Origin: Actinomycetes bacterium
GTDB taxonomy: Bacteria; Actinomycetota; Actinomycetes; Nanopelagicales; Nanopelagicaceae
Direction of reading: 5' to 3'
NCBI GenBank assembly: GCA_025360085.1
Contig: JANYCW010000014.1
Coordinates: 28,357-92,356 of the forward strand
Length of the DNA stretch: 64,000 bases
Positions 9,521 through 47,468 of the stretch are shown here, one piece after another; the first letter of the stretch is position 1, and each line of letters begins with the position of its first letter. A model generated the notes under the pieces. That model saw nothing but the letters and a program-made list of their open reading frames with translations. It had not been told where the DNA came from and did not search any database. Made by a program: the position numbers and the translations under genes.

Positions 9521-11752
9521 CTAGAAAAGCACCCTCTTCATCTCCGCTGATTTTGCAATAGCAACAAAGACTGGAATCTCATCTACTGGTGTATCTACAT
9601 GAATCCATTGTTTGCCAGTGAACTCTTCATCGCTCCAAAGATTCACCCACGTACCTTCTGGCAAGTACACCTCCATACCTGTTGTATGGGGTTGGATGAC
9701 TGGGGCAATAAGCAAACTGGTTCCGAGCATATATTGATATGGCGCTTTCCAAATTTCTTCATCATCGAAGTAGTCAAAAAATAGACCAGCCATGAGGGGC
9801 CGACCGGTCTCAATCGCTTTTTTTCCTTCCACGGAAAGGTAAGGAATTAGGCGCTTTCGCAGGGATGCAAAACTGCGAAAGATTGAAATTACCTCTGGGC
9901 TGCCATTTTGTTCGGCGATATTCCATGGAGTGCGATCATTGGAGGGAATCTGATGGTGATTAAACTCAGAATGAAACTGCATAATTGGACAGAATGTCGC
10001 CATAGCGCTTGCGCGTAGATACAAATCTGTTGATGGGAGGTCCCCGCTAAATCCAGCAATATCCCAGCCCCAAAAAAAGATTCCACTTGCCGAGGCGGTT
10101 ATTCCTGCTCTGATGGATGCACGATATGCATCCCACGTAGAATCCTCATCCCCTGCCCAAAACGTTGGATATGAGCTACTTCCTGCAAAACCTGCACGTG
10201 AAAAGGTAATTGCCTCACTCTGCGTGGAGCTGATTAATTCATGGAAAGTCTGTGCATAAGCAACCGGGAATAGATTATTTTTTTCGATTCCCAATGCACC
10301 ATCGAGATACCTAAGATCAGAACCCCATGCGTGTTCTCCACCATCAGTTTTAAAACCATCAATACACATCTCTGTTAGCAGATATTTGTGTAGGTCGCCC
10401 CACCACTTCCTAACTTTGGAATCGGTAAGATCTGGTAAGAGACCATCTCTAAACCAGAAACCGGGCACGCGATAAGGTTGGTCTGATGAGTCTTTAATGA
10501 CAAGATTGTTTTCGATTGCATAGTTCCATATCGCACGGATTTGGGAGCCAGGCTCACCCTGATCTTTAATAACTGGAATTTGCCAGAGGATACATTTGCT
10601 TCCTTGGGCATGAATGTCATCGATCATTTTCTGAGGGTTAGGCCAGGCACCATCACGTGGATATGTGATTTGTGTGCTGTGTAATCCAATCGAGCCGTCG
10701 GTGGGAGTAAACACGGCATCTCTGAATACGGCGAATGTGGATTCATCAGACCATGCCTCTAAAACAATTACTCCGAGATCAATTCCATGGGCCAGACTCA
10801 ATGCAATTTCTTCCTCAACGCGCGCTTGGGTATTCCACTCGTTGCTGCTACCCCAGATACTGTAAATCCAGTTCGGAGGAGCCTTGGGCAGTTCAAACTC
10901 GGAGATATATTGCTTAAGAATTGAGACGTAATCACCTCCATAAATCTTTATTTCGCACTCTGACTGCCCCGGTGCGATGTCAATCTCGATAATAAGACGA
11001 TCGCTTTTTGAAACACCCACGTCGAAGCGAGTTGGAGTTGATGTCTTTACATAAAAACCGTAGTTACTGCCAATAACCATTCCGAAGGGAGCTGGGAGAT
11101 AAGTTCTGTGCCCTTGCCCCTTGTACTCTTCATACACAACGGCATCGACAAACTCTCCACGTTGATCAATGGAGTTAAAGCGCTCGCCGAATCCGACAAC
11201 GTGGTCGTTCACGGTCAAAGGTAGTGAGGCACGGAGAGAAAAGATTCGCCCAGTTGAATCCCGTAGGATTTCAATATCACTACATTGAACATTTACATCA
11301 AAGCCGGAGGTAACTTCGAGAAAGCCATTTTCATCTGGAGCCCACGCTAGGGCAGAAAATGAATATGGAGTAGTGCGCTCTTTACTATCGCTTTCGAACC
11401 AGTACGTGATCTCTTCGAAATTGAGAAGAATTGGTAGATCGATTTCCCACTGGAGTTCTCCTGGATATTCACCTGATCGTGCGGCCGCATCGGCGAGGTG
11501 TGTATCTGCACCAATATATTTTGCGGTCTGACCATAAGGACCATGGTCATCAGATCGGGCATTGCCGAGCAGATTCAATTCATAAATCTCTGATTTCAAT
11601 TCTCCTCGCACATATAGAAAGACTTTTTTTGTCAACTCATCGCTGCGAGCCCGTACTTTCCATGCCTGACCAGAGATTGGATATATGGGAATGCGTTGAT
11701 CTGGCTCATATCGATATGGGTGGCCAATTCCAATTGGAACGTGGTTTAACAT
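9521..11752 (-). CDS. Glycoside hydrolase family 31, probable 1,3-alpha-isomaltosidase (cycloalternan-degrading) type
   Basis: GH31 nucleophile region DGFKTDGGEH, acid/base WAGDEDSTW, WGWDIAGF and MQFHSE. No signal peptide. Family assignment is secure; substrate is inferred. Confidence 0.88.
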   Translation of the reverse strand: MLNHVPIGIGHPYRYEPDQRIPIYPISGQAWKVRARSDELTKKVFLYVRGELKSEIYELNLLGNARSDDHGPYGQTAKYIGADTHLADAAARSGEYPGELQWEIDLPILLNFEEITYWFESDSKERTTPYSFSALAWAPDENGFLEVTSGFDVNVQCSDIEILRDSTGRIFSLRASLPLTVNDHVVGFGERFNSIDQRGEFVDAVVYEEYKGQGHRTYLPAPFGMVIGSNYGFYVKTSTPTRFDVGVSKSDRLIIEIDIAPGQSECEIKIYGGDYVSILKQYISEFELPKAPPNWIYSIWGSSNEWNTQARVEEEIALSLAHGIDLGVIVLEAWSDESTFAVFRDAVFTPTDGSIGLHSTQITYPRDGAWPNPQKMIDDIHAQGSKCILWQIPVIKDQGEPGSQIRAIWNYAIENNLVIKDSSDQPYRVPGFWFRDGLLPDLTDSKVRKWWGDLHKYLLTEMCIDGFKTDGGEHAWGSDLRYLDGALGIEKNNLFPVAYAQTFHELISSTQSEAITFSRAGFAGSSSYPTFWAGDEDSTWDAYRASIRAGITASASGIFFWGWDIAGFSGDLPSTDLYLRASAMATFCPIMQFHSEFNHHQIPSNDRTPWNIAEQNGSPEVISIFRSFASLRKRLIPYLSVEGKKAIETGRPLMAGLFFDYFDDEEIWKAPYQYMLGTSLLIAPVIQPHTTGMEVYLPEGTWVNLWSDEEFTGKQWIHVDTPVDEIPVFVAIAKSAEMKRVLF

Positions 11753-11756
11753 GGCG

Positions 11757-12884
11757 TTAATCCTCTCGAATTGCGTAATACAAAGACAAGAACATCGCGT
11801 GGCTCCAGAGGAGTGGAACCGCTGGCTCCCCCCATCTGGCTATCCATTCTGCTCTCATGTGTGGGCGCTGCAAATCTTCGGGTAACTGTTCGGGTAATTC
11901 ACATTTTTCATTTGCAAGGCTGCCTACCCACGTCAAAATTTCAGTTGCTTGATCAATCTGCTTCATTGAAACTAGGGCAAGTCCGAGAAAACATGAAAGG
12001 AGTGGCCAACGGCCTCCACCGAAGTATTCATCCTCTAAGTGTCTGAATGTACCCAGCCTGCCAAGTGTTTGAGAGACCGCGTTTATTGTAGAAAGAGCTA
12101 TCTCATCAGAGGCATCAAAAAGAGCAAATGGTGCGATGAGTGCCACAAGAGAGGCGTCGAGGCCCTCGCCATCAATCCATTTTGCTAAGTGCCCATCGAT
12201 AAGCCCACGGCTACGGATATGGAGCATTATGTCGCAGGCCGTCTTTGTAGCCAGAGTTTGTGAGGCGCTGGAAATCTCTGGCCAATGACTGGCTCTTGAA
12301 AGGCCTGCAACCATGCTGCCAAGACTTGCAACATGTTGATGTCCAAAGTTTTCTTCCCACCAGTCAAAACTTGGAATTTGCCAGAACGTGGCTAAGTAAG
12401 CAATTAAAGTTTCTACTGCACGAAATGTCGAAGGTGGGAGTGTATTGCCTCGCTCCAAAAACTTATCTAGAGAGAATATCCAACTTCCAAATCCATCTAG
12501 CTGAAGATTGGTCCAGGCCTCGGATGACTCCTTACCATCGAGGGTAAAGCGACAGTGCAGATGTTCATCATTTGCAATTGTTTCGCCCTGCTTTTGACGT
12601 TTAATTAATGAAGAGATTTTTTCTTCACGCTCAAGGATGACCCGAGTGGCCCAATTATGAAAATTTAGTGCACACTCATTTTCTCCACTAGCGCTCATCG
12701 CCTCAGCGATGAAGGCTCCGTCTCTAAACCAGCTGTAGTTGTAAACAGCAAAGTGGGGAGAGGCTAGGTAGGCACCGGAGTCAGATTGATACTTTTTAAT
12801 GATGTCGATGCTTGCGTCTTTAAGAAGTGAAAGCTTGTCAATAATAAGTTTTACCATCAATTTCTCTAGCGGTTCTTGAATCAA
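11757..12884 (-). CDS. Glycoside hydrolase family 15, probable isomaltose glucohydrolase
   Basis: GH15 motifs YSWFRDG, QLDGFG, FDWWEE, LPEQ and PLLWSHA. Alternative ATG at 12857. Confidence 0.88.
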   Translation of the reverse strand: MIQEPLEKLMVKLIIDKLSLLKDASIDIIKKYQSDSGAYLASPHFAVYNYSWFRDGAFIAEAMSASGENECALNFHNWATRVILEREEKISSLIKRQKQGETIANDEHLHCRFTLDGKESSEAWTNLQLDGFGSWIFSLDKFLERGNTLPPSTFRAVETLIAYLATFWQIPSFDWWEENFGHQHVASLGSMVAGLSRASHWPEISSASQTLATKTACDIMLHIRSRGLIDGHLAKWIDGEGLDASLVALIAPFALFDASDEIALSTINAVSQTLGRLGTFRHLEDEYFGGGRWPLLSCFLGLALVSMKQIDQATEILTWVGSLANEKCELPEQLPEDLQRPHMRAEWIARWGEPAVPLLWSHAMFLSLYYAIRED

Positions 12885-12892
12885 TAATTAGG

Positions 12893-12926
12893 ATGGCGTT
12901 GCGGCCAATTGAGACCGCAACGCCAT
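12893..12926. terminator. 12-bp perfect stem-loop between the SBP and GH15 genes
   Basis: ATGGCGTTGCGG-N10-CCGCAACGCCAT. The T-run follows on the + strand, i.e. opposite to the operon direction. Confidence 0.6.
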
Positions 12927-12940
12927 TTTTTACCCCTGAA

Positions 12941-14209
12941 TTATTCTTTTGCCAGGATTGCGTTTACATCCTTAGCAGCCGAATTCAAAGCCTCTGTAAC
13001 TGATATTGAGCCATTGAGAGCCTTCTCGAGCCATGCATTCACCACGTCCTGCATTTCATTTTGTTGACGAATTACTGGAGGTGTCACAGGGTTCTTAAGT
13101 GCCTCAAAGACTGCTGCACGGTTGGCAGGTGGTGTCTTTGAGAGATAAGAGGAGAGCGTGGCTTTGTTTGAGATCGCTGGAATTTCCCAGTTAGCTCCCA
13201 AACGGATCTTGATTGCAGCAGGATCGCTAGTCATGAACTGTGCCCATTTCCATGAGGCGTTCGGATACTTTGACTTAGCAGATGCAACCACTGCATTAGC
13301 AAAGAAGTGGTTACCTGGACTAACTCCACCTGGCTCCACGGCAATGTCCCACCCAAATGGAGCATCTTTGAAAGAGTCAAAGAGCCAAATGCCTGAGTGA
13401 TACATCGCAATCTTGCCAGCCTTAAACATCGCATCATCTGCAAGTGTTCCCATTTGAGCCTTGGTTGGCGTATATCCTGCTACCGTTTTTCCGACAAGCC
13501 AGTTGAGAGCATTAATGCCTGGCTGCTTGTTAAAGAGGGCAGTCTTCTTATCGGCGCTGAGGAAACTTCCGCCGGCCTGACCGAGGACTTTATAAAACTC
13601 CCAAAACTGCGTTGGTTGGAAATCAGCATATGTGCCTGCTGGAAGTTTTGCCTTCAACGCAGCTGATGCAGAAGCTTCATCGCTCCAGTCCCAATTAGCC
13701 TTTGGTGCCTCTACTCCGGCCGCCTTAAATAAATCCTTGTTGTAATAGAGAACAACCGTGGAGAATGAAGCTGGAACCCCATACTGCTTTCCTCTGAGAT
13801 TGAAGACGTCATAGGCCTTGCCGTAGTAGATGCTCTTCTTAAAAGACTTATCCTTTTTAGATTCTTTACTCAAGTCAAGAAGCGTTCCTGCCGCAGCATA
13901 AGTAACGAAGTTCTCATAATTTAACTCAAATGCATCCGGTGTCTGATTACCCGCAACGCGGGTCTTAAGTTTGGTCCAGTAATCAGCATATGAGGCAGAC
14001 TGGATGTTGACATGGATAGTTGGATTCTTCTTTTCAAAGGCCGCAACCATAGCTTGGAGATCCTTCATATGGTCAGGAACTGCCGTGAATGTAAAGAAGT
14101 TGATTGTTGTCTTGGAAGCAGCAGCAACAGTATTGCTCACTAGCCCAACACTTGCGATGAGCAATCCAGCGATGCCGGCAGCCCAGAACTTGCTTTTCAT
14201 GCCTTTCAT
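12941..14209 (-). CDS. Carbohydrate ABC transporter substrate-binding protein
   Basis: N-terminal signal-like segment; YGVPASFSTVVLYYNKDLF and FKAGKIAM are CUT1 SBP motifs. Confidence 0.92.
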   Translation of the reverse strand: MKGMKSKFWAAGIAGLLIASVGLVSNTVAAASKTTINFFTFTAVPDHMKDLQAMVAAFEKKNPTIHVNIQSASYADYWTKLKTRVAGNQTPDAFELNYENFVTYAAAGTLLDLSKESKKDKSFKKSIYYGKAYDVFNLRGKQYGVPASFSTVVLYYNKDLFKAAGVEAPKANWDWSDEASASAALKAKLPAGTYADFQPTQFWEFYKVLGQAGGSFLSADKKTALFNKQPGINALNWLVGKTVAGYTPTKAQMGTLADDAMFKAGKIAMYHSGIWLFDSFKDAPFGWDIAVEPGGVSPGNHFFANAVVASAKSKYPNASWKWAQFMTSDPAAIKIRLGANWEIPAISNKATLSSYLSKTPPANRAAVFEALKNPVTPPVIRQQNEMQDVVNAWLEKALNGSISVTEALNSAAKDVNAILAKE

Positions 14210-14284
14210 TTCTTCCCCCTTAGTAAGTGATGTGCTACCCCGTGTAGGGCTTTCTCTCGTATCTGGAATTTCAAAGTTTGCGTT

Positions 14285-15100
14285 CTATCCTTTGATTCCT
14301 GCCGTGAGAAAACTTTGTGCGATCTGTTTTTGTAATAGAAGATAAACAAAGGCAATGGGTAAAATTGCAAGTGTTGTTCCAGCCATGACCATCGGCCAGT
14401 CGGTAAGGTTCTCACCTTGGAGATTGGCCAAAGCCAATGGAAGAGTCATCTTCTCGGGACTGAAAATTATTATTAGAGGCCAGAGGTATGCGTTCCATAC
14501 AGCCATAAAGGAGAGAATTCCTAGGGCCGCTAAGGATGGCAGGGCCAATGGCAGGGCCACTGAGAAAAATAACCGAAAATGATTTGCCCCATCTATTAGT
14601 GCTGCCTCCTCTAATTCTTTTGGAATAGCCAGCATCGCTTGGCGCATAAGAAAGACACCAAAGGCTGAAGAGAGCATAGGAAGGCCGAGTCCGAGAAAAG
14701 AGTCGATAAGTCCGAGCGCTCGCATCTCAATAAAGAGTGGCACGATTATTACCTGAAAGGGGATCATCATCGTCGCAAGGTAGATGAAAAACAAAAAATT
14801 CTTGCCACGAAAATACAATCTAGCGAATGCATATCCCGCAAGTGCTGAAGTAAATAGTTGAAGTGAAACGACAGTTATCGAAATCAAAATTGTGTTTAAG
14901 AAGAGTCTTGGCAAATTCAAAGTTTCAAATAAATTTCTGTAGTTCTCAAAAGTTGGAGATTTTGGAATGAGAGTAGGAGGAGTTGCAAATGCTTCGACGC
15001 TATTTTTAAGAGAGGAGCTAATCATCCAGAAAAATGGAAAGAGCATGATCAACCCGAAAAAATAAGTCAAATATTTTGGACGAGTATGTTTTTTATGCAT
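14285..15100 (-). CDS. Carbohydrate ABC transporter permease (MalG-like)
   Basis: EAA motif ELEEAALIDGA; LAGYAFARL and WNAYLWPL. Confidence 0.93.
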   Translation of the reverse strand: MHKKHTRPKYLTYFFGLIMLFPFFWMISSSLKNSVEAFATPPTLIPKSPTFENYRNLFETLNLPRLFLNTILISITVVSLQLFTSALAGYAFARLYFRGKNFLFFIYLATMMIPFQVIIVPLFIEMRALGLIDSFLGLGLPMLSSAFGVFLMRQAMLAIPKELEEAALIDGANHFRLFFSVALPLALPSLAALGILSFMAVWNAYLWPLIIIFSPEKMTLPLALANLQGENLTDWPMVMAGTTLAILPIAFVYLLLQKQIAQSFLTAGIKG

Positions 15101-15968
15101 AGTTGACCCACTTTTTTTGAAGACGAATTTGAATTACGGTAACAGCCATGATGATCGCAAAGAGAGACATGCTCATTGCCGATGCGTATCCCATTTTTCC
15201 GTAAGCAAAAGAGTTTTTCACAATCTGCTCAACAATTACCGATGTAGAGCCTTCGGGTCCGCCTGAAGTCATAATCCAAATTTGATCGAATACTTGAAAA
15301 TTATTTATGAGACTAATAACGAGTACAAAAAATGATGCTGGAGTCAATAGCGGAAGCGTTATATGCAAGAGAATTTGACGCTTGGAGGCACCATCGATTG
15401 CGGCAGCTTCTTTATACTCAGGTGGAATTGCCTGTAGCCCGGCCAAAAGAATAAGCATGACCCAACCGAGGTCTTTCCATGCTGAAGGTACGATGACAGA
15501 AATCATTGCCCAGGATTTGCTGGTCCACCATCCGGGGCCTTGTATTCCGAATAGGTGTAGGGCTGAATTAACTACCCCCCCGTTGGGATTTAAAATCCAC
15601 TTCCACAGTAGGGCCACGATTACCCAACTGGTAATAACAGGCAAGAAAAAGGCGGCCCGAAGCGCCATGGAACCTTTGAATTTTCTATCCAGAGCAAGCG
15701 CTGCGCTGAGGCCGAGAATGTAAACCAGCGGTAGATAGCCCGCAATGAAAATGAGCGTGTTCTGTAAGGCATTGCGGAAATTGGCATCATGGAGCAGAGC
15801 TTTGAAGTTCTCAAAGCCCACCCACGTAGGGGGAGAAAGTAAATCCCACGTAGTAAAACTGAGAACTCCCGCCGCCAGCATTGGCAGGATAAGGAATAAA
15901 ACTAGTGGAATCAGACTAGGTGCAATAAAAACTGCTGCAGTCCGACTTTGCCCGCTCTTAAGACTCAT
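15093..15968 (-). CDS. Carbohydrate ABC transporter permease (MalF-like)
   Basis: LLAGLQAIPPEYKEAAAIDGA EAA loop; FQVFDQIWIMTSGGP; GYASAMS. Confidence 0.93.
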   Translation of the reverse strand: MSLKSGQSRTAAVFIAPSLIPLVLFLILPMLAAGVLSFTTWDLLSPPTWVGFENFKALLHDANFRNALQNTLIFIAGYLPLVYILGLSAALALDRKFKGSMALRAAFFLPVITSWVIVALLWKWILNPNGGVVNSALHLFGIQGPGWWTSKSWAMISVIVPSAWKDLGWVMLILLAGLQAIPPEYKEAAAIDGASKRQILLHITLPLLTPASFFVLVISLINNFQVFDQIWIMTSGGPEGSTSVIVEQIVKNSFAYGKMGYASAMSMSLFAIIMAVTVIQIRLQKKWVNYA

Positions 15969-17152
15969 GCAGAAAATCCAGAAGCGGAAGCGATGCGTAA
16001 ACGGTTCTTAACCTCCACTGATTGTGAGTTGATATTTGAGTTCCTACTCAATGATGCCTGCAAAACAATTGCAGTGGCACCGAGTGCCCATTTCGCATCA
16101 TCCCAAGGATCGACTTCGATTTCGAACTTGTTCATCGTGGAAACAACACTGGCTTTAAGGCTTTTTTGAAAATGTGGCTCCCAGAGATCCCAGGCTCCAA
16201 CACCTTCGCCACTTATGAAGATTAGTTCAGGACCAAAAACATTGATGACATTACCAAGAGCTATACCTAGAGCTTCAGCAGGTTTTTTAAAGAGCGCATG
16301 TGCAATTTTCTTATCGCTTCGCGCTAACTCCAGCAATTTTGATATGGAAGTATTTGGGCGGATGTAACCCGCCGTGACGGCGGATGCATGAATGGCGGGA
16401 CTGGATGCAAGCGTTTCGAGACATCCCATTTTTCCGCATTCGCAGAGAGCTCCAGGAGAAACAGCCTGCACGTGCCCGAATTCGCCAGCGCCGTAGGAAC
16501 CAGAATAAAGTTCGCCGTTGATGACGAGCCCCATACCAATTCCCCGACCAAGTGTGATTGTGATGAAGTTGCTGACGTCGCGGCCATGTCCATAAAGACT
16601 CTCAGTGATCGAGAGTGTATTAACGTCGTTCTCTAGTAAAACTGGGGTATTGAGTTCTTGAGAGAGTTTTTTACCCACGTCTAAGTTGGTCCATCCAAGC
16701 ATTAAAGAGTCTGCTGTACTTGAATCCAAAGGTGAGACCACGCCAGGCACGCCAATTCCGATTCCAAGGAGTTGTCCCTTAACGCGCTTAACTTGCTTGC
16801 GCAGTAAATTAGTCAACTCTTTTACTGCCGCTTCACCGCGGGATTTGAAAGGCTCCTCGAATTTCCAGAGTATTTCTGAATGAAGATTAACGCAGACTCC
16901 AACGACATGGTCTTCAGCTAATTTAATACCCAGAAGTTGACCCGCATTGGCAACTAGCCCTAAAAGAGTGGCTGGTCGACCGCCCGTAGAAGGGGATTGC
17001 TCCAACTCGGTGATAAGCCCCCGATCTAAGAGGTACTTAGTCGCCTGCGTCAAGGTTGGGCCACTGAGGCCCAAATCTCGAGCTAATTGAGCGCGGGAAA
17101 GTGGTCCCTGAGTAGCGATGTTTCTTAGAACTTCGTTTGTACTATCTCGCAT
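15965..17152 (-). CDS. ROK-family transcriptional repressor
   Basis: N-terminal wHTH (LSRAQLARDLGLSGPTLT...STGGRPA) plus ROK domain (LENDVN, GEFGH, CECGKMGCLE). Confidence 0.92.
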   Translation of the reverse strand: MRDSTNEVLRNIATQGPLSRAQLARDLGLSGPTLTQATKYLLDRGLITELEQSPSTGGRPATLLGLVANAGQLLGIKLAEDHVVGVCVNLHSEILWKFEEPFKSRGEAAVKELTNLLRKQVKRVKGQLLGIGIGVPGVVSPLDSSTADSLMLGWTNLDVGKKLSQELNTPVLLENDVNTLSITESLYGHGRDVSNFITITLGRGIGMGLVINGELYSGSYGAGEFGHVQAVSPGALCECGKMGCLETLASSPAIHASAVTAGYIRPNTSISKLLELARSDKKIAHALFKKPAEALGIALGNVINVFGPELIFISGEGVGAWDLWEPHFQKSLKASVVSTMNKFEIEVDPWDDAKWALGATAIVLQASLSRNSNINSQSVEVKNRLRIASASGFSA

Positions 17153-17179
17153 CCCGACACCTCCCGACTTACTTTCTTT

Positions 17180-17195
17180 ACTTACTTAAGTAAGT
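17180..17195. promoter_or_regulatory. Perfect 16-bp palindrome, candidate ROK repressor operator
   Basis: ACTTACTTAAGTAAGT, 28 bp upstream of the ROK start codon. A half-site-like ACTTACT also occurs at 17167-17173. Confidence 0.6.
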
Positions 17196-46146: not shown

Positions 46147-46704
46147 TTGGCTACAAAAATTCGTTTAATGCGCATGGGCAAAATCCGCACACCATTTTTC
46201 CGCGTTGTCGTTACGGACTCTCGTAAAGCGCGTAACGGTCTCTCCATTGAAGAGATTGGTCGCTATGTTCCAGGACAAGAGCCTTCGCTCATTGAAATTA
46301 ACTCAGAGCGCGCTTTGTATTGGTTAGGAGTCGGTGCACAACCGTCAGAGGCCGTAGAGGCGCTTTTGAAAGTGACGGGAGATTGGCAAAAACATAAGGG
46401 GCTGCCAGGAAGTGAAGGCACGTTGCGTGTAGCCGCACCTCGCATTGGCAAGCACGTCGCATATGAGGCGGCGGTTAAGAACGCGATGGATGAGCCTAAA
46501 GAGGGCGCAACAACATTGAAGAAGAAGGCGCAAGAGAAGTTAGCTGCAAAGGTAAACCCAGTCTCCGAACCAACGGAGAATCTAGAGGTGTCCGTGTCCG
46601 AACCAGTCGCTATCGAAGCGGTGTCCGAGGTTCCAGCAGTAGAAGCGACTACAGATGCGGTGCTTGAAACTGAAGTGCTTGAAAAAGAAACGGTTACCGA
46701 ATAA
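46147..46704 (+). CDS. rpsP: 30S ribosomal protein S16 with an acidic C-terminal extension
   Basis: KIRLMRMGK...[10 protein letters not shown]...[11 protein letters not shown] start follows the SD AGGAG. Confidence 0.97.
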
Positions 46705-46706
46705 TT

Positions 46707-46946
46707 ATGATGGATGAGGCCCTCGAGCATTTAGTAAAGGGAATCGTTGATAATCCTGCCGATGTTGTTGTTACTGAGAAGACACATCGTCGTGGAACAA
46801 CTCTTGAGGTACGTGTAAACCCGCAAGATATCGGCAAAGTTATTGGGCGCAATGGTCGCACCGCTAAGGCGTTGCGCACGGTTGTTAGCGCGCTCGCGGG
46901 TCGCACTGTTCGTGTCGATCTTGTCGAGACCGACGAACCTAACTAA
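46707..46946 (+). CDS. khpA: KH-domain RNA-binding protein
   Basis: DIGKVIGRNGRTAKALRTV. Confidence 0.95.
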   Translation: MMDEALEHLVKGIVDNPADVVVTEKTHRRGTTLEVRVNPQDIGKVIGRNGRTAKALRTVVSALAGRTVRVDLVETDEPN

Positions 46947-46964
46947 GTACGTATACACATCGCC

Positions 46965-47468
46965 ATGCGTTTACTCGTAGGGCGTATTGGTCGCGCCCAT
47001 GGGATTCTAGGCGAGGCCACGATTGAAGTTAGAAGCGATGACCCAGATGCGCGCTTTGCTGTCGGATCAGAGCTCGGAACTCAAGATCATGGCACCTTAA
47101 CCATCACTTCGGGCCGCGTACACAATGGCGTTTTGTTACTGGGTATTGCGGGCTACCACAATCGTAACCAGATAGAAAAACTAAGAGATACCTTGTTGTA
47201 TGCCGAAGTTGATATCGAAGAGGTACGTGCAAATGCCGATGATTATCACGTTCTGCAGTTAATTGGCTGTACCGCATTTCTTGAATCAGGTGAGCTCTTT
47301 GGCCAAGTTACCGATGTTATAAATCTGCCTGGACAAGACTTACTAGCGATTTCTACCCCTACACATGAGTCATTGATTCCCTTCGTACATCAGCTAGTTC
47401 CACTCGTAGATATTGCCGCCAAAAGAATAGTTGTGATTCCACCGAATATGAGCGAGGTGATTACATGA
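46965..47468 (+). CDS. rimM: Ribosome maturation factor
   Basis: VGRIGRAHGILGE, PGQDLL and LIPFV; position between khpA and trmD. Confidence 0.93.
   Translation: MRLLVGRIGRAHGILGEATIEVRSDDPDARFAVGSELGTQDHGTLTITSGRVHNGVLLLGIAGYHNRNQIEKLRDTLLYAEVDIEEVRANADDYHVLQLIGCTAFLESGELFGQVTDVINLPGQDLLAISTPTHESLIPFVHQLVPLVDIAAKRIVVIPPNMSEVIT

Follow-up and report, generated by a model that had tools for sequence, protein, structure and literature searches.

The window analyzed here, a stretch of 64,000 nucleotides from a planktonic freshwater actinobacterium of the acI lineage (Planktophila), carries an intact six-gene operon on its minus strand (9521-17152; Table 1), and our ORF calls coincided exactly with the span proposed by the first-pass annotation. 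The genes are arranged in the order ROK, permease 1, permease 2, SBP, GH15, and GH31, with successive intergenic distances of -4, -8, 75, 56, and 4 nt. Their Pfam content (ROK with a MarR-type HTH, BPD_transp_1 twice, SBP_bac_1, Glyco_hydro_15, and a GH31 with PF21568 AIMA-like_N), together with the GFKTDGGEH motif, bore out the earlier description of a ROK/permease/permease/SBP/GH15/GH31 operon. A signal peptide was found in the SBP and in neither GH31 nor GH15. In the PDB comparison, the best solved relative of each of the four soluble proteins was a member of a cycloalternan (CNN) pathway.

Table 1. Features of the operon and its flanking and intergenic elements (window coordinates).
Feature	Position	Strand	Basis
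ROK-family regulator with N-terminal winged-helix (MarR-type) domain, first gene of the operon	15965..17152	-	Pfam ROK 1.2e-48 and MarR_2
ABC permease 1, CUT1 type, MalF/UgpA-like	15093..15968	-	BPD_transp_1 4.3e-18
ABC permease 2, CUT1 type, MalG/UgpE-like	14285..15100	-	BPD_transp_1 5e-21; conserved cassette position
SBP, Lmo0181 (cycloalternan-binding) group	12941..14209	-	5F7V match
Hairpin with 14-bp stem between SBP stop and GH15 start	12893..12926	-	Terminator scan; folding
Single-domain cytoplasmic GH15, isomaltose-glucohydrolase-like	11757..12884	-	PDB match, catalytic motifs
Cytoplasmic GH31, predicted cycloalternan-degrading enzyme/1,3-alpha-isomaltosidase clade	9521..11752	-	PDB matches, PF21568, ML tree
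Candidate ROK operator, perfect 16-bp palindrome ACTTACTTAAGTAAGT	17180..17195		Conservation; putative function

The GH31 protein matched TpCADE (5F7S; 1.5e-187, 629 bits) and 5X3I (1.3e-180) over their full length, with 41% identity to TpCADE (residues 1-731 aligned to 1-728), and Pfam detected both PF01055 (1.1e-56) and PF21568 (3.6e-12, exceeding the cut-off). Its nucleophile motif (residues 466-474) aligns with the Ala-mutated residue of 5X3I, which we take to be Kfla1895 D451A in agreement with where the Ala falls along the chain, and its acid/base motif (WAGDEDS at 532) aligns with the Ala-mutated residue of 5I0G. As expected for this clade, the protein measures about 740 aa, the family-specific N-domain is present, C-terminal binding modules are absent, the alignment starts from TpCADE residue 1, and no hydrophobic leader is seen at the N-terminus (MLNHVPIGIGHPY). 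In the maximum-likelihood tree, the protein fell into a 100/100 clade (10 rows) with TpCADE and 5X3I, while the forming enzyme Lmo2446 was placed outside; it retains 113/125 clade-invariant and 12 of the 13 clade-specific columns. This placement among characterized hydrolases points to membership in the 1,3-alpha-isomaltosidase/cycloalternan-degrading clade and predicts alpha-1,3 cleavage of CNN; a grouping with alpha-xylosidases or sulfoquinovosidases, which the first-pass annotation had regarded as fatal to its proposal, did not occur. For TpCADE itself, specificity for cycloalternan has been reported, its activity on nigerose being below 0.1% (PMC9061262).

The GH15 protein (375 aa) consists of a single (alpha/alpha)6 catalytic domain and lacks the N-terminal beta-sandwich seen in bacterial glucoamylases. 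Its best PDB match was the isomaltose glucohydrolase of Kribbella flavida (5Z3D/5Z3A; 3.5e-75, 38.6% identity over 345 aa), with residues 25-368 aligned to 45-391 of the 405-aa 5Z3D chain, and the second-best solved relative reached only 3e-05. The comparison suggested earlier thus left isomaltose glucohydrolase as the sole significant solved relative, an identity confirmed for 5Z3A (PMC12446779). Both catalytic Glu motifs are retained (WWEE at 175 and LPEQ at 330), and the likeness to KfIG predicts that isomaltose is preferred to maltose, trehalose, and dextran.

The SBP carries a Sec-type signal peptide without a lipobox cysteine and matched Lmo0181 (5F7V) at 2e-101 with 44.6% identity, the next structure following at 1.7e-22; Lmo0181 was crystallized in a closed form with CNN bound (PMC7676653). 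Half of the residues compared (11/22) agree with the cavity list given for 5F7V in a docking paper, a list that does not equal the CNN contacts. A pocket core of seven residues (F41, Y74, V152, E204, G273, W275, and F303) is common to 15/15 cassette SBPs including Lmo0181, position 74 being aromatic (F/Y/W), and is not matched in the cycloisomaltooligosaccharide (CI)-binding paralogue. Co-location of an Lmo0181-type SBP with a GH31 hydrolase is conserved across phyla, and permease 1 shows 78-88% identity among Nanopelagicaceae cassettes and 46-57% in other phyla. An orphan MsiK/UgpC-type ATPase and a ROK glucokinase are encoded elsewhere in the genome, on contigs C51 and C47, respectively.

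The best solved relative of the ROK regulator was Lmo0178 from the Listeria cycloalternan locus (1.3e-47; next, 4.5e-33). The palindrome ACTTACTTAAGTAAGT ends approximately 27 nt before the start codon of the ROK gene, is accompanied by an extra half-site (ACTTACTT at 17167-17174), is kept in 8/8 aligned Nanopelagicaceae loci, and occurs only once in the genome even when up to 2 mismatches are allowed, features consistent with a role as the ROK operator. The hairpin that follows the SBP gene (folding energy, -28.7 kcal/mol) was present in all six folded Nanopelagicaceae loci, with stem sequences that differ yet stay complementary; it is probably an mRNA-stabilizing or attenuating element that would raise the ratio of SBP to hydrolases.

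Based on the homology of the four soluble components, the phylogeny, and the conserved gene order, the prediction that this locus serves CNN-type uptake and catabolism, with a 1,3-alpha-isomaltosidase-like GH31 and an isomaltose-glucohydrolase-like GH15, is well supported. Our preferred model, to which we assign a probability of roughly two in three, is a substrate-inducible operon for the import and cytoplasmic degradation of an isomaltosyl-alpha-(1->3) oligosaccharide, most likely CNN (cyclobis-(1->6)-alpha-nigerosyl). ROK would repress its own operon through the palindrome just upstream of its start codon until a pathway sugar, the putative inducer, releases it. The secreted SBP would capture the sugar and hand it over to the two permeases, presumably energized by the orphan ATPase. 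The cytoplasmic GH31 would then split CNN at its two alpha-1,3 bonds into two isomaltose molecules, which GH15 would convert into glucose for phosphorylation by the ROK glucokinase.

To our knowledge, all known CNN-forming enzymes belong to GH31. A PF01055 profile search of the 1.63-Mb, 99.4%-complete assembly revealed no second GH31, the operon GH31 being the only one, and the sequence nearest to Lmo2446 was this hydrolase itself (37% identity, catalytic domain only). No match to a forming-type GH31 was found in a sample of 201 Nanopelagicaceae genomes, nor in approximately 20 other cassette-bearing genomes from three phyla. The absence of forming enzymes, originally noted for the window, therefore holds for the whole genome, the family sample, and the other cassette bearers, indicating that the consumer-only state is the rule rather than a peculiarity of this genome. 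Since the secreted GH31 6-alpha-glucosyltransferase and 3-alpha-isomaltosyltransferase are both absent, the full producer-plus-consumer pathway does not occur here, and other members of the community would have to supply the sugar. The host thus probably lives in part on a sugar that other microbes produce, and it may plausibly scavenge another organism's cyclic glucan, as first proposed. The secreted alpha-glucan enzymes encoded elsewhere in the genome are a type I pullulanase and a GH13 amylase-like protein (651 aa), whose NCBIfam matches all lie far under the cut-offs and which sits in an apparently ordinary maltodextrin operon that also encodes a maltodextrin glucosidase and a separate set of permeases; two GH13 oligo-1,6-glucosidase-like enzymes are also present.

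The order ROK-permease-permease-SBP-GH15-GH31 is common to Nanopelagicaceae and Microbacteriaceae, and Chloroflexota and a Spirochaete carry these six genes together in slightly different orders. In every Nanopelagicaceae case the cassette adjoins recA, from which we conclude that it was already present in the ancestor and that most Planktophila have lost it. Among the Planktophila sampled, no other genome carries it (those listed measure 1.3-1.5 Mb) apart from one incomplete 1.2-Mb MAG; it is otherwise kept in genomes of larger size, the 1.63 Mb of the host and 1.7-2.2 Mb in a sister genus. The host had been described as a streamlined planktonic actinobacterium; the planktonic actinobacterial part stands, but the framing as streamlined needs softening given that the cassette is kept mostly in the larger genomes. 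In the sister genus, a CI-type cassette is found either in tandem with the CNN-type cassette or as its partial replacement; no CI-type cassette was found in the genome of the window.

Widespread scavenging and a different, linear natural substrate would both be compatible with the consumer-only state, and the linear substrate is a serious rival, even if we consider it unlikely. The same enzymology would then act on a sugar with an isomaltosyl non-reducing end linked alpha-1,3 or alpha-1,4, such as fragments of alternan or alpha-1,3-branched dextran, isomaltosyl-1,3-isomaltose, or panose from pullulan or glycogen limit dextrins, with GH31 freeing isomaltose and GH15 completing the degradation, and no cyclic pool would be needed. 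The CNN reading, by comparison, requires an environmental supply of CNN, as no forming GH31 was found in the approximately 20 cassette bearers, and we know of no report of CNN from natural waters. It also requires GH31 to act on the linear intermediate isomaltosyl-1,3-isomaltose, meaning that the enzyme necessarily cleaves a linear tetrasaccharide, and Tagami et al. reportedly found in 2016 that the rate of Kfla1895 on panose is about 2% of that on CNN. The secreted amylase-like GH13 and the pullulanase would supply alpha-glucan fragments, and the paralogous SBP of the sister genomes resembles TdCIBP, a binder of both cyclic and long linear isomalto-oligosaccharides. Also counting against the CNN reading are the identity of only 39-45% to characterized proteins, at which specificity could have drifted, and the agreement of no more than 11/22 residues with the SBP cavity list. 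Against a linear substrate stand the reported specificity of TpCADE for cycloalternan (PMC9061262) and the closure of Lmo0181 on CNN (PMC7676653); moreover, the two oligo-1,6-glucosidase-like enzymes and the separate maltodextrin operon already cover ordinary limit dextrins, and the conservation of a dedicated cassette across phyla speaks for a special substrate.

Far less probable is an unrelated alpha-glycoside (alpha-xylosides, sulfoquinovosides, maltose, or trehalose), the likeness to CNN enzymes then reflecting shared family only. Weak NCBIfam matches to alpha-xylosidase, MalA, and trehalase models could be read in this way, but their scores (235 vs 606, 191 vs 800, and 43 vs 820 bits) are far under the cut-offs, and the assignment of the GH31 as an alpha-xylosidase was rejected on the first of these. 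YicI- and YihQ-like identities were likewise rejected (148 and 114 bits vs 629 for TpCADE), the placement in the GH31 tree disagrees with such substrates, and isomaltose glucohydrolase is the only solved protein with a significant match to GH15, so that this explanation is already strongly disfavored. Production of the cyclic sugar by the host itself through a non-GH31 enzyme, which would make it both producer and consumer, is the most improbable of all, since CNN is formed by two GH31 transglucosidases (PMC9061262) and the one candidate, the secreted GH13 of uncertain specificity, lies in its maltodextrin operon, although GH13 transferases do serve the cyclic maltosyl-maltose pathway (PMC7676653).

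The acI Actinobacteria are the most abundant freshwater bacterioplankton, and their carbon sources are still deduced largely from genome data; a cassette that is dedicated, regulated, and retained from the ancestor offers a concrete and testable acI substrate in the form of a cycloalternan-type sugar. The literature we searched contained no paper linking such a sugar with Nanopelagicales. We tentatively envisage, as a possibility still on the doubtful side, that lakes contain an unrecognized pool of "privatized" cyclic alpha-glucans (cycloalternan, and CIs for the sister genus) made by other bacteria from algal starch or glycogen and taken cost-free by acI through ancestral recA-linked cassettes, with consumer-only organisms widespread across phyla. 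The lack of forming enzymes in all examined cassette bearers suggests that privatization may be routinely undermined by consumers, or that the natural substrate has been misjudged through reliance on the two or three model organisms for which data exist. In both cases, the annotation of these CAZyme families in environmental genomes would be refined.

Complete producer-plus-consumer cycloalternan pathways occur in Listeria, Kribbella, and Sporosarcina. The Kribbella flavida CNN cluster, comprising a regulator, a transporter, the 1,3-alpha-isomaltosidase Kfla1895 (EC 3.2.1.204), and the isomaltose glucohydrolase Kfla1896 (EC 3.2.1.205), resembles ours in its pair of cytoplasmic GH31 and GH15 enzymes; the GH31 proteins share 40% identity and are alignable over their full length including the AIMA-like N-domain, and the GH15 proteins (38.6% identity) are both single-domain with the two catalytic Glu motifs kept. 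A separate Kribbella cluster reportedly encodes a secreted 6-alpha-glucosyltransferase and 3-alpha-isomaltosyltransferase that make CNN from starch, as Tagami et al. are said to have described in 2016, whereas the genome studied here has no second GH31. The Listeria monocytogenes pathway consists of the ROK repressor Lmo0178, the ABC importer Lmo0179-0181, a cycloalternan-degrading GH31, and the secreted forming enzyme Lmo2446, which has no counterpart in our genome. Both operons begin with ROK, followed by a two-permease importer with an Lmo0181-like SBP (44.6% identity), lack an ATPase gene, and employ a cytoplasmic GH31 hydrolase; Listeria cleaves isomaltose by a GH13 oligo-1,6-glucosidase, not by GH15. 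At the enzyme level, Trueperella pyogenes TpCADE (PDB 5F7S/5I0G), the best solved relative of our GH31, matches it in domain layout and in both the nucleophile and the acid/base motif. The CI system (TdCIBP as SBP, an intracellular GH66 dextranase, and a GH15 isomaltose glucohydrolase) differs in its branch of the SBP family (23% identity) and in the use of GH66 in place of GH31, but shares the logic of importing a glucan that is cyclic or rich in alpha-1,6 bonds, cytoplasmic opening, and a GH15 finish. Among these systems, the locus described here adds another member to an already known pathway.

Six co-oriented open reading frames on the minus strand (window 9521-17152), separated by successive spacings of -4, -8, 75, 56, and 4 nt, encode a ROK regulator, two permeases, a solute-binding protein (SBP), a GH15, and a GH31, so that the operon described in the first-pass annotation was borne out by open reading frames and Pfam matches. 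The contig is 102 kb long and belongs to a 1.63-Mb, 99.4%-complete assembly of 61 contigs. Source names attached to close homologues place the genome in the family Candidatus Nanopelagicaceae, and the nearest match in a genome collection, at 77% identity, bears the label Candidatus Planktophila. The divergently oriented recA is the upstream neighbor of the operon, and tdh and kbl lie downstream; the latter two were placed outside the module because their adjacency to the cassette was found only in the closest relative. We assign a probability of about 0.68 to the combined statement that GH31/GH15 enzymology of the isomaltosyl-α-1,3 type operates here with cycloalternan (CNN; cyclobis-(1→6)-α-nigerosyl) as the substrate. 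As separate claims, enzymology acting on an isomaltosyl-α-1,3 substrate of some form is very probable, and cycloalternan itself as the main natural substrate is modestly favored.

Positions of the cassette genes, their accessory elements, and related loci (window positions unless a contig, C, of the same genome or a locus, L, of another genome is named)
Feature	Position	Strand	Basis or source
ROK regulator with N-terminal winged-helix domain	15965-17152	minus	Pfam
ABC permease, CUT1-type	15093-15968	minus	Pfam
ABC permease, CUT1-type	14285-15100	minus	Pfam
SBP, signal peptide	12941-14209	minus	Pfam
GH15, 375 aa, no signal peptide	11757-12884	minus	Pfam
GH31, 743 aa, no signal peptide	9521-11752	minus	Pfam
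Palindrome, candidate ROK operator	17180-17195		
Additional palindrome half-site	17167-17174		
Hairpin	12893-12926	minus	
MsiK/UgpC-type ABC ATPase	C51:~46200-47350		
Maltodextrin-type operon	C46:2372-8160		
Secreted type I pullulanase, cut by contig end	C1:~13000-14900		
Split GH31 orthologue	L032:10001-12192		Actinomycetota MAG
Second cassette, tandem or partly replacing	L022:12259-19393; L028:2901-12235		sister-genus Nanopelagicaceae

By sequence comparison, all four soluble proteins (GH31, GH15, SBP, and ROK) have a component of the cycloalternan pathway as their best solved relative, with moderate identities to the characterized proteins (BLASTP and alignments). GH31 matched 5X3I, which we take to be Kribbella flavida Kfla1895 D451A, at 1.3e-180 (40% identity), and the 5X3I chain has alanine at the position expected for D451A. 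Its match to 5F7S/5I0G, named as the cycloalternan-degrading enzyme of Trueperella pyogenes (TpCADE) in PMC9061262, reached 1.5e-187 over residues 1-731 (41% identity); that to Lmo2446, the forming enzyme of Listeria, covered the catalytic part only (6.6e-123; 37% identity over the catalytic domain), and the remaining GH31 structures scored 5e-46 or weaker. The comparison of GH15 with isomaltose glucohydrolase suggested in the first-pass annotation returned the Kribbella enzyme as the best solved relative (5Z3A/5Z3D, so named in PMC12446779; 3.5e-75; 38.6% identity), with no further significant relative among solved structures, and both catalytic glutamate motifs, WWEE and LPEQ, are retained. 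ROK was closest to its Listeria counterpart Lmo0178 (1.3e-47; runner-up structure, 4.5e-33).

The N-terminus of GH31 matched PF21568, the "1,3-alpha-isomaltosidase-like N-terminal domain" of Pfam, and the acid/base motif WAGDEDS is found at residue 532. The GFKTDGGEH motif, located at residues 466-474, and the cytoplasmic placement of both glycosidases were likewise as first described. Because the identities to the hydrolase (41%) and the transferase (37%) are close, 19 GH31 sequences were used to build a maximum-likelihood tree. It placed the window GH31 in a clade of ten actinobacterial sequences with 100/100 support, including both characterized hydrolases, and left Lmo2446 and three unrelated GH31 proteins outside. 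Among columns invariant across the ten clade members from outside Nanopelagicaceae, the window GH31 matches 113 of 125, and 12 of the 13 that differ in Lmo2446 and other GH31 proteins. Assignments of GH31 as an α-xylosidase (model score, 235 bits; cut-off, 606; YicI structure, 148 bits versus 629 for TpCADE) or a sulfoquinovosidase (YihQ structure, 114 bits versus 629), which the first-pass annotation had listed as refuting its reading, were rejected, as was a trehalase assignment, with scores far under the cut-offs.

The SBP is most similar to Lmo0181 of Listeria (5F7V; 2e-101; 44.6% identity), with the runner-up structure at 1.7e-22; 5F7V represents the closed, CNN-complexed state (PMC7676653). 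In a docking paper on 5F7V, 22 residues line the cycloalternan cavity, and after verification of the numbering offset at 22/22 residues, 11 of them proved identical in the window SBP, the list deriving from docking and not from CNN contacts. A pocket core of F41, an aromatic residue (F/Y/W) at 74, V152, E204, G273, W275, and F303 is common to 15/15 cassette SBPs, Lmo0181 included, and most of these seven positions differ in an SBP paralogue whose specificity is different. This shared core appears consistent with one ligand class, when read as a set of cavity residues rather than of CNN contacts. Among the SBPs compared (N-terminus at window 14110-14209, and those of loci L019, L023, L030, and L032 of other genomes), the Nanopelagicaceae ones, including a paralogue of the cycloisomaltooligosaccharide (CI) type, lack a lipobox cysteine and carry a signal peptide that ends in an AxA-type site; Microbacteriaceae orthologues have a classical LAGC lipobox.

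A 16-bp perfect palindrome, ACTTACTTAAGTAAGT, precedes the ROK start codon by ~27 nt, is kept in 8/8 aligned Nanopelagicaceae loci, and occurs once in the genome at ≤2 mismatches. We propose it as a candidate ROK operator, in which case its uniqueness would imply a regulon of one operon. A hairpin with a 14-bp stem (-28.7 kcal/mol) and no T-run after the stem is situated 3' of the SBP stop codon, before the GH15 start. Hairpins followed the SBP gene in 6/6 Nanopelagicaceae relatives folded, where stem sequences vary and complementarity is kept through compensatory changes; none was found in the Microbacteriaceae loci. Such hairpins are the usual means of holding SBP transcripts above those of downstream genes, and this one is probably a transcript-stabilizing or attenuating element.

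None of the six open reading frames of the operon encodes an ATPase. The genome has a single MsiK/UgpC-type ABC ATPase (459 bits; cut-off, 432), which has no permease genes beside it and presumably energizes each of the genome's five or six CUT1 sugar importers, the present one among them. A ROK glucokinase and two GH13 oligo-1,6-glucosidase-like proteins are encoded elsewhere. With the ATPase and glucokinase present, the pathway from import to glucose-6-phosphate therefore appears complete: ROK would repress the operon at the palindrome, the SBP and two permeases would import the sugar with power supplied by the orphan ATPase, GH31 would cut the α-1,3 bonds to release isomaltose, GH15 would convert isomaltose to glucose, and glucokinase would phosphorylate the glucose. 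The genome also carries a maltodextrin-type operon with two permeases, a maltodextrin-glucosidase-like GH13, and a secreted, amylase-like GH13 of 651 aa, whose specificity is uncertain as every NCBIfam match fell far under its cut-off. A type I pullulanase is secreted as well, and extracellular α-glucans are therefore attacked by this organism.

The absence of forming enzymes, initially noted from the window, extends to the whole genome, to the family as sampled, and further. A PF01055 profile search of the 99.4%-complete assembly recovered exactly one GH31, that of the operon, and no forming-type GH31; the cell is a general α-glucan user without known means of making CNN. PF01055 scans of 14 cassette-bearing genomes found the cassette GH31 to be the sole GH31 in all Actinobacteria among them, including two cultured Microbacteriaceae. 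The extra GH31 genes of the cassette-bearing Chloroflexota and Spirochaete were rejected as hidden forming enzymes because their identity to the catalytic domain of Lmo2446 does not exceed 31%. A 400-genome Actinomycetota sample yielded the hydrolase in four further genomes, with no second strong GH31 match in any of them, a slightly weaker figure as only two candidates per genome were scored. The consumer-only state was the rule among the cassette-bearing genomes examined, roughly 20 in number. This generality fits equally the widespread scavenging of a sugar made by few producers and a non-cyclic natural substrate. The main rival to our reading is of the latter kind, with a linear isomaltosyl oligosaccharide (alternan or branched-dextran fragments, or panose) as the natural substrate, and we consider it less probable than cycloalternan.

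Orthologues of GH31, full-length or fragmentary, were found in 11 of 201 sampled Nanopelagicaceae genomes, namely the window's own, nine of a sister genus (1.7-2.2 Mb), and one of a further genus; none was found in the other sampled genomes of the window's own genus, 18 of which, listed by name, are 1.3-1.5 Mb in size. In one Actinomycetota MAG (L032), the orthologue matches as two overlapping pieces in different frames (residues 1-593 and a C-terminal 171 aa), as would be expected from a frameshift or a misassembly. The gene order ROK-permease-permease-SBP-GH15-GH31 is common to Nanopelagicaceae and Microbacteriaceae (Leifsonella bigeumensis, Terrimesophilobacter mesophilus, and a Cryobacterium MAG), and several Chloroflexota and a Spirochaetales MAG have the same six genes together in slightly varying orders. 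One Planktophila MAG carries the window's whole layout of recA, cassette, and tdh-kbl, at 77-92% protein identity. As recA directly adjoins the cassette in every Nanopelagicaceae locus with the upstream flank recovered, across at least three groups, the cassette is therefore regarded as ancestral to the family and vertically inherited, and loss is a better reading of its absence from most Planktophila than recent gain. Recent horizontal acquisition was ruled out by the genome-typical GC content, the recA adjacency, and the congruent GH31 tree. The recA-side region is altogether different in own-genus genomes without the cassette; among the own-genus and sister complete genomes compared (L072-L077), cassette-free Planktophila have neither tdh nor kbl within 12 kb of recA, so the flank of recA varies among members of the genus.

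In some sister-genus genomes, a second cassette (ROK'-SBP'-permease-permease-GH15'-GH66) directly follows GH31, and others have kept the ROK and GH31 genes with the transporter and GH15 replaced by the second set; the window's genome has no such cassette. SBP' matched 9XF5 (1.5e-80), the cycloisomaltooligosaccharide-binding protein TdCIBP from Tepidibacillus decaturensis, whose ligands are cyclic and long linear α-1,6 glucans. The GH66 is cytoplasmic and dextranase-like, and no CITase-type forming enzyme was seen at the retrieved sister-genus loci. With CNN-type and CI-type cassettes in tandem, the recA-linked locus would thus be an island for α-1,6-rich, possibly cyclic, glucans.

That these bacteria scavenge the cyclic sugar of others is an attractive ecological idea, which we infer throughout. 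The literature searched contained no mention of the cassette or pathway in Nanopelagicaceae. Earlier work on Kribbella, Listeria, Trueperella, and Sporosarcina has already established the pathway, its enzyme activities, and the pairing of SBP and ligand; new here are the presence and ancestral recA-linked retention of the cassette in the dominant family of freshwater bacterioplankton, together with the consumer-only generality, the candidate operator, and the tandem CI-type cassette of the sister genus.
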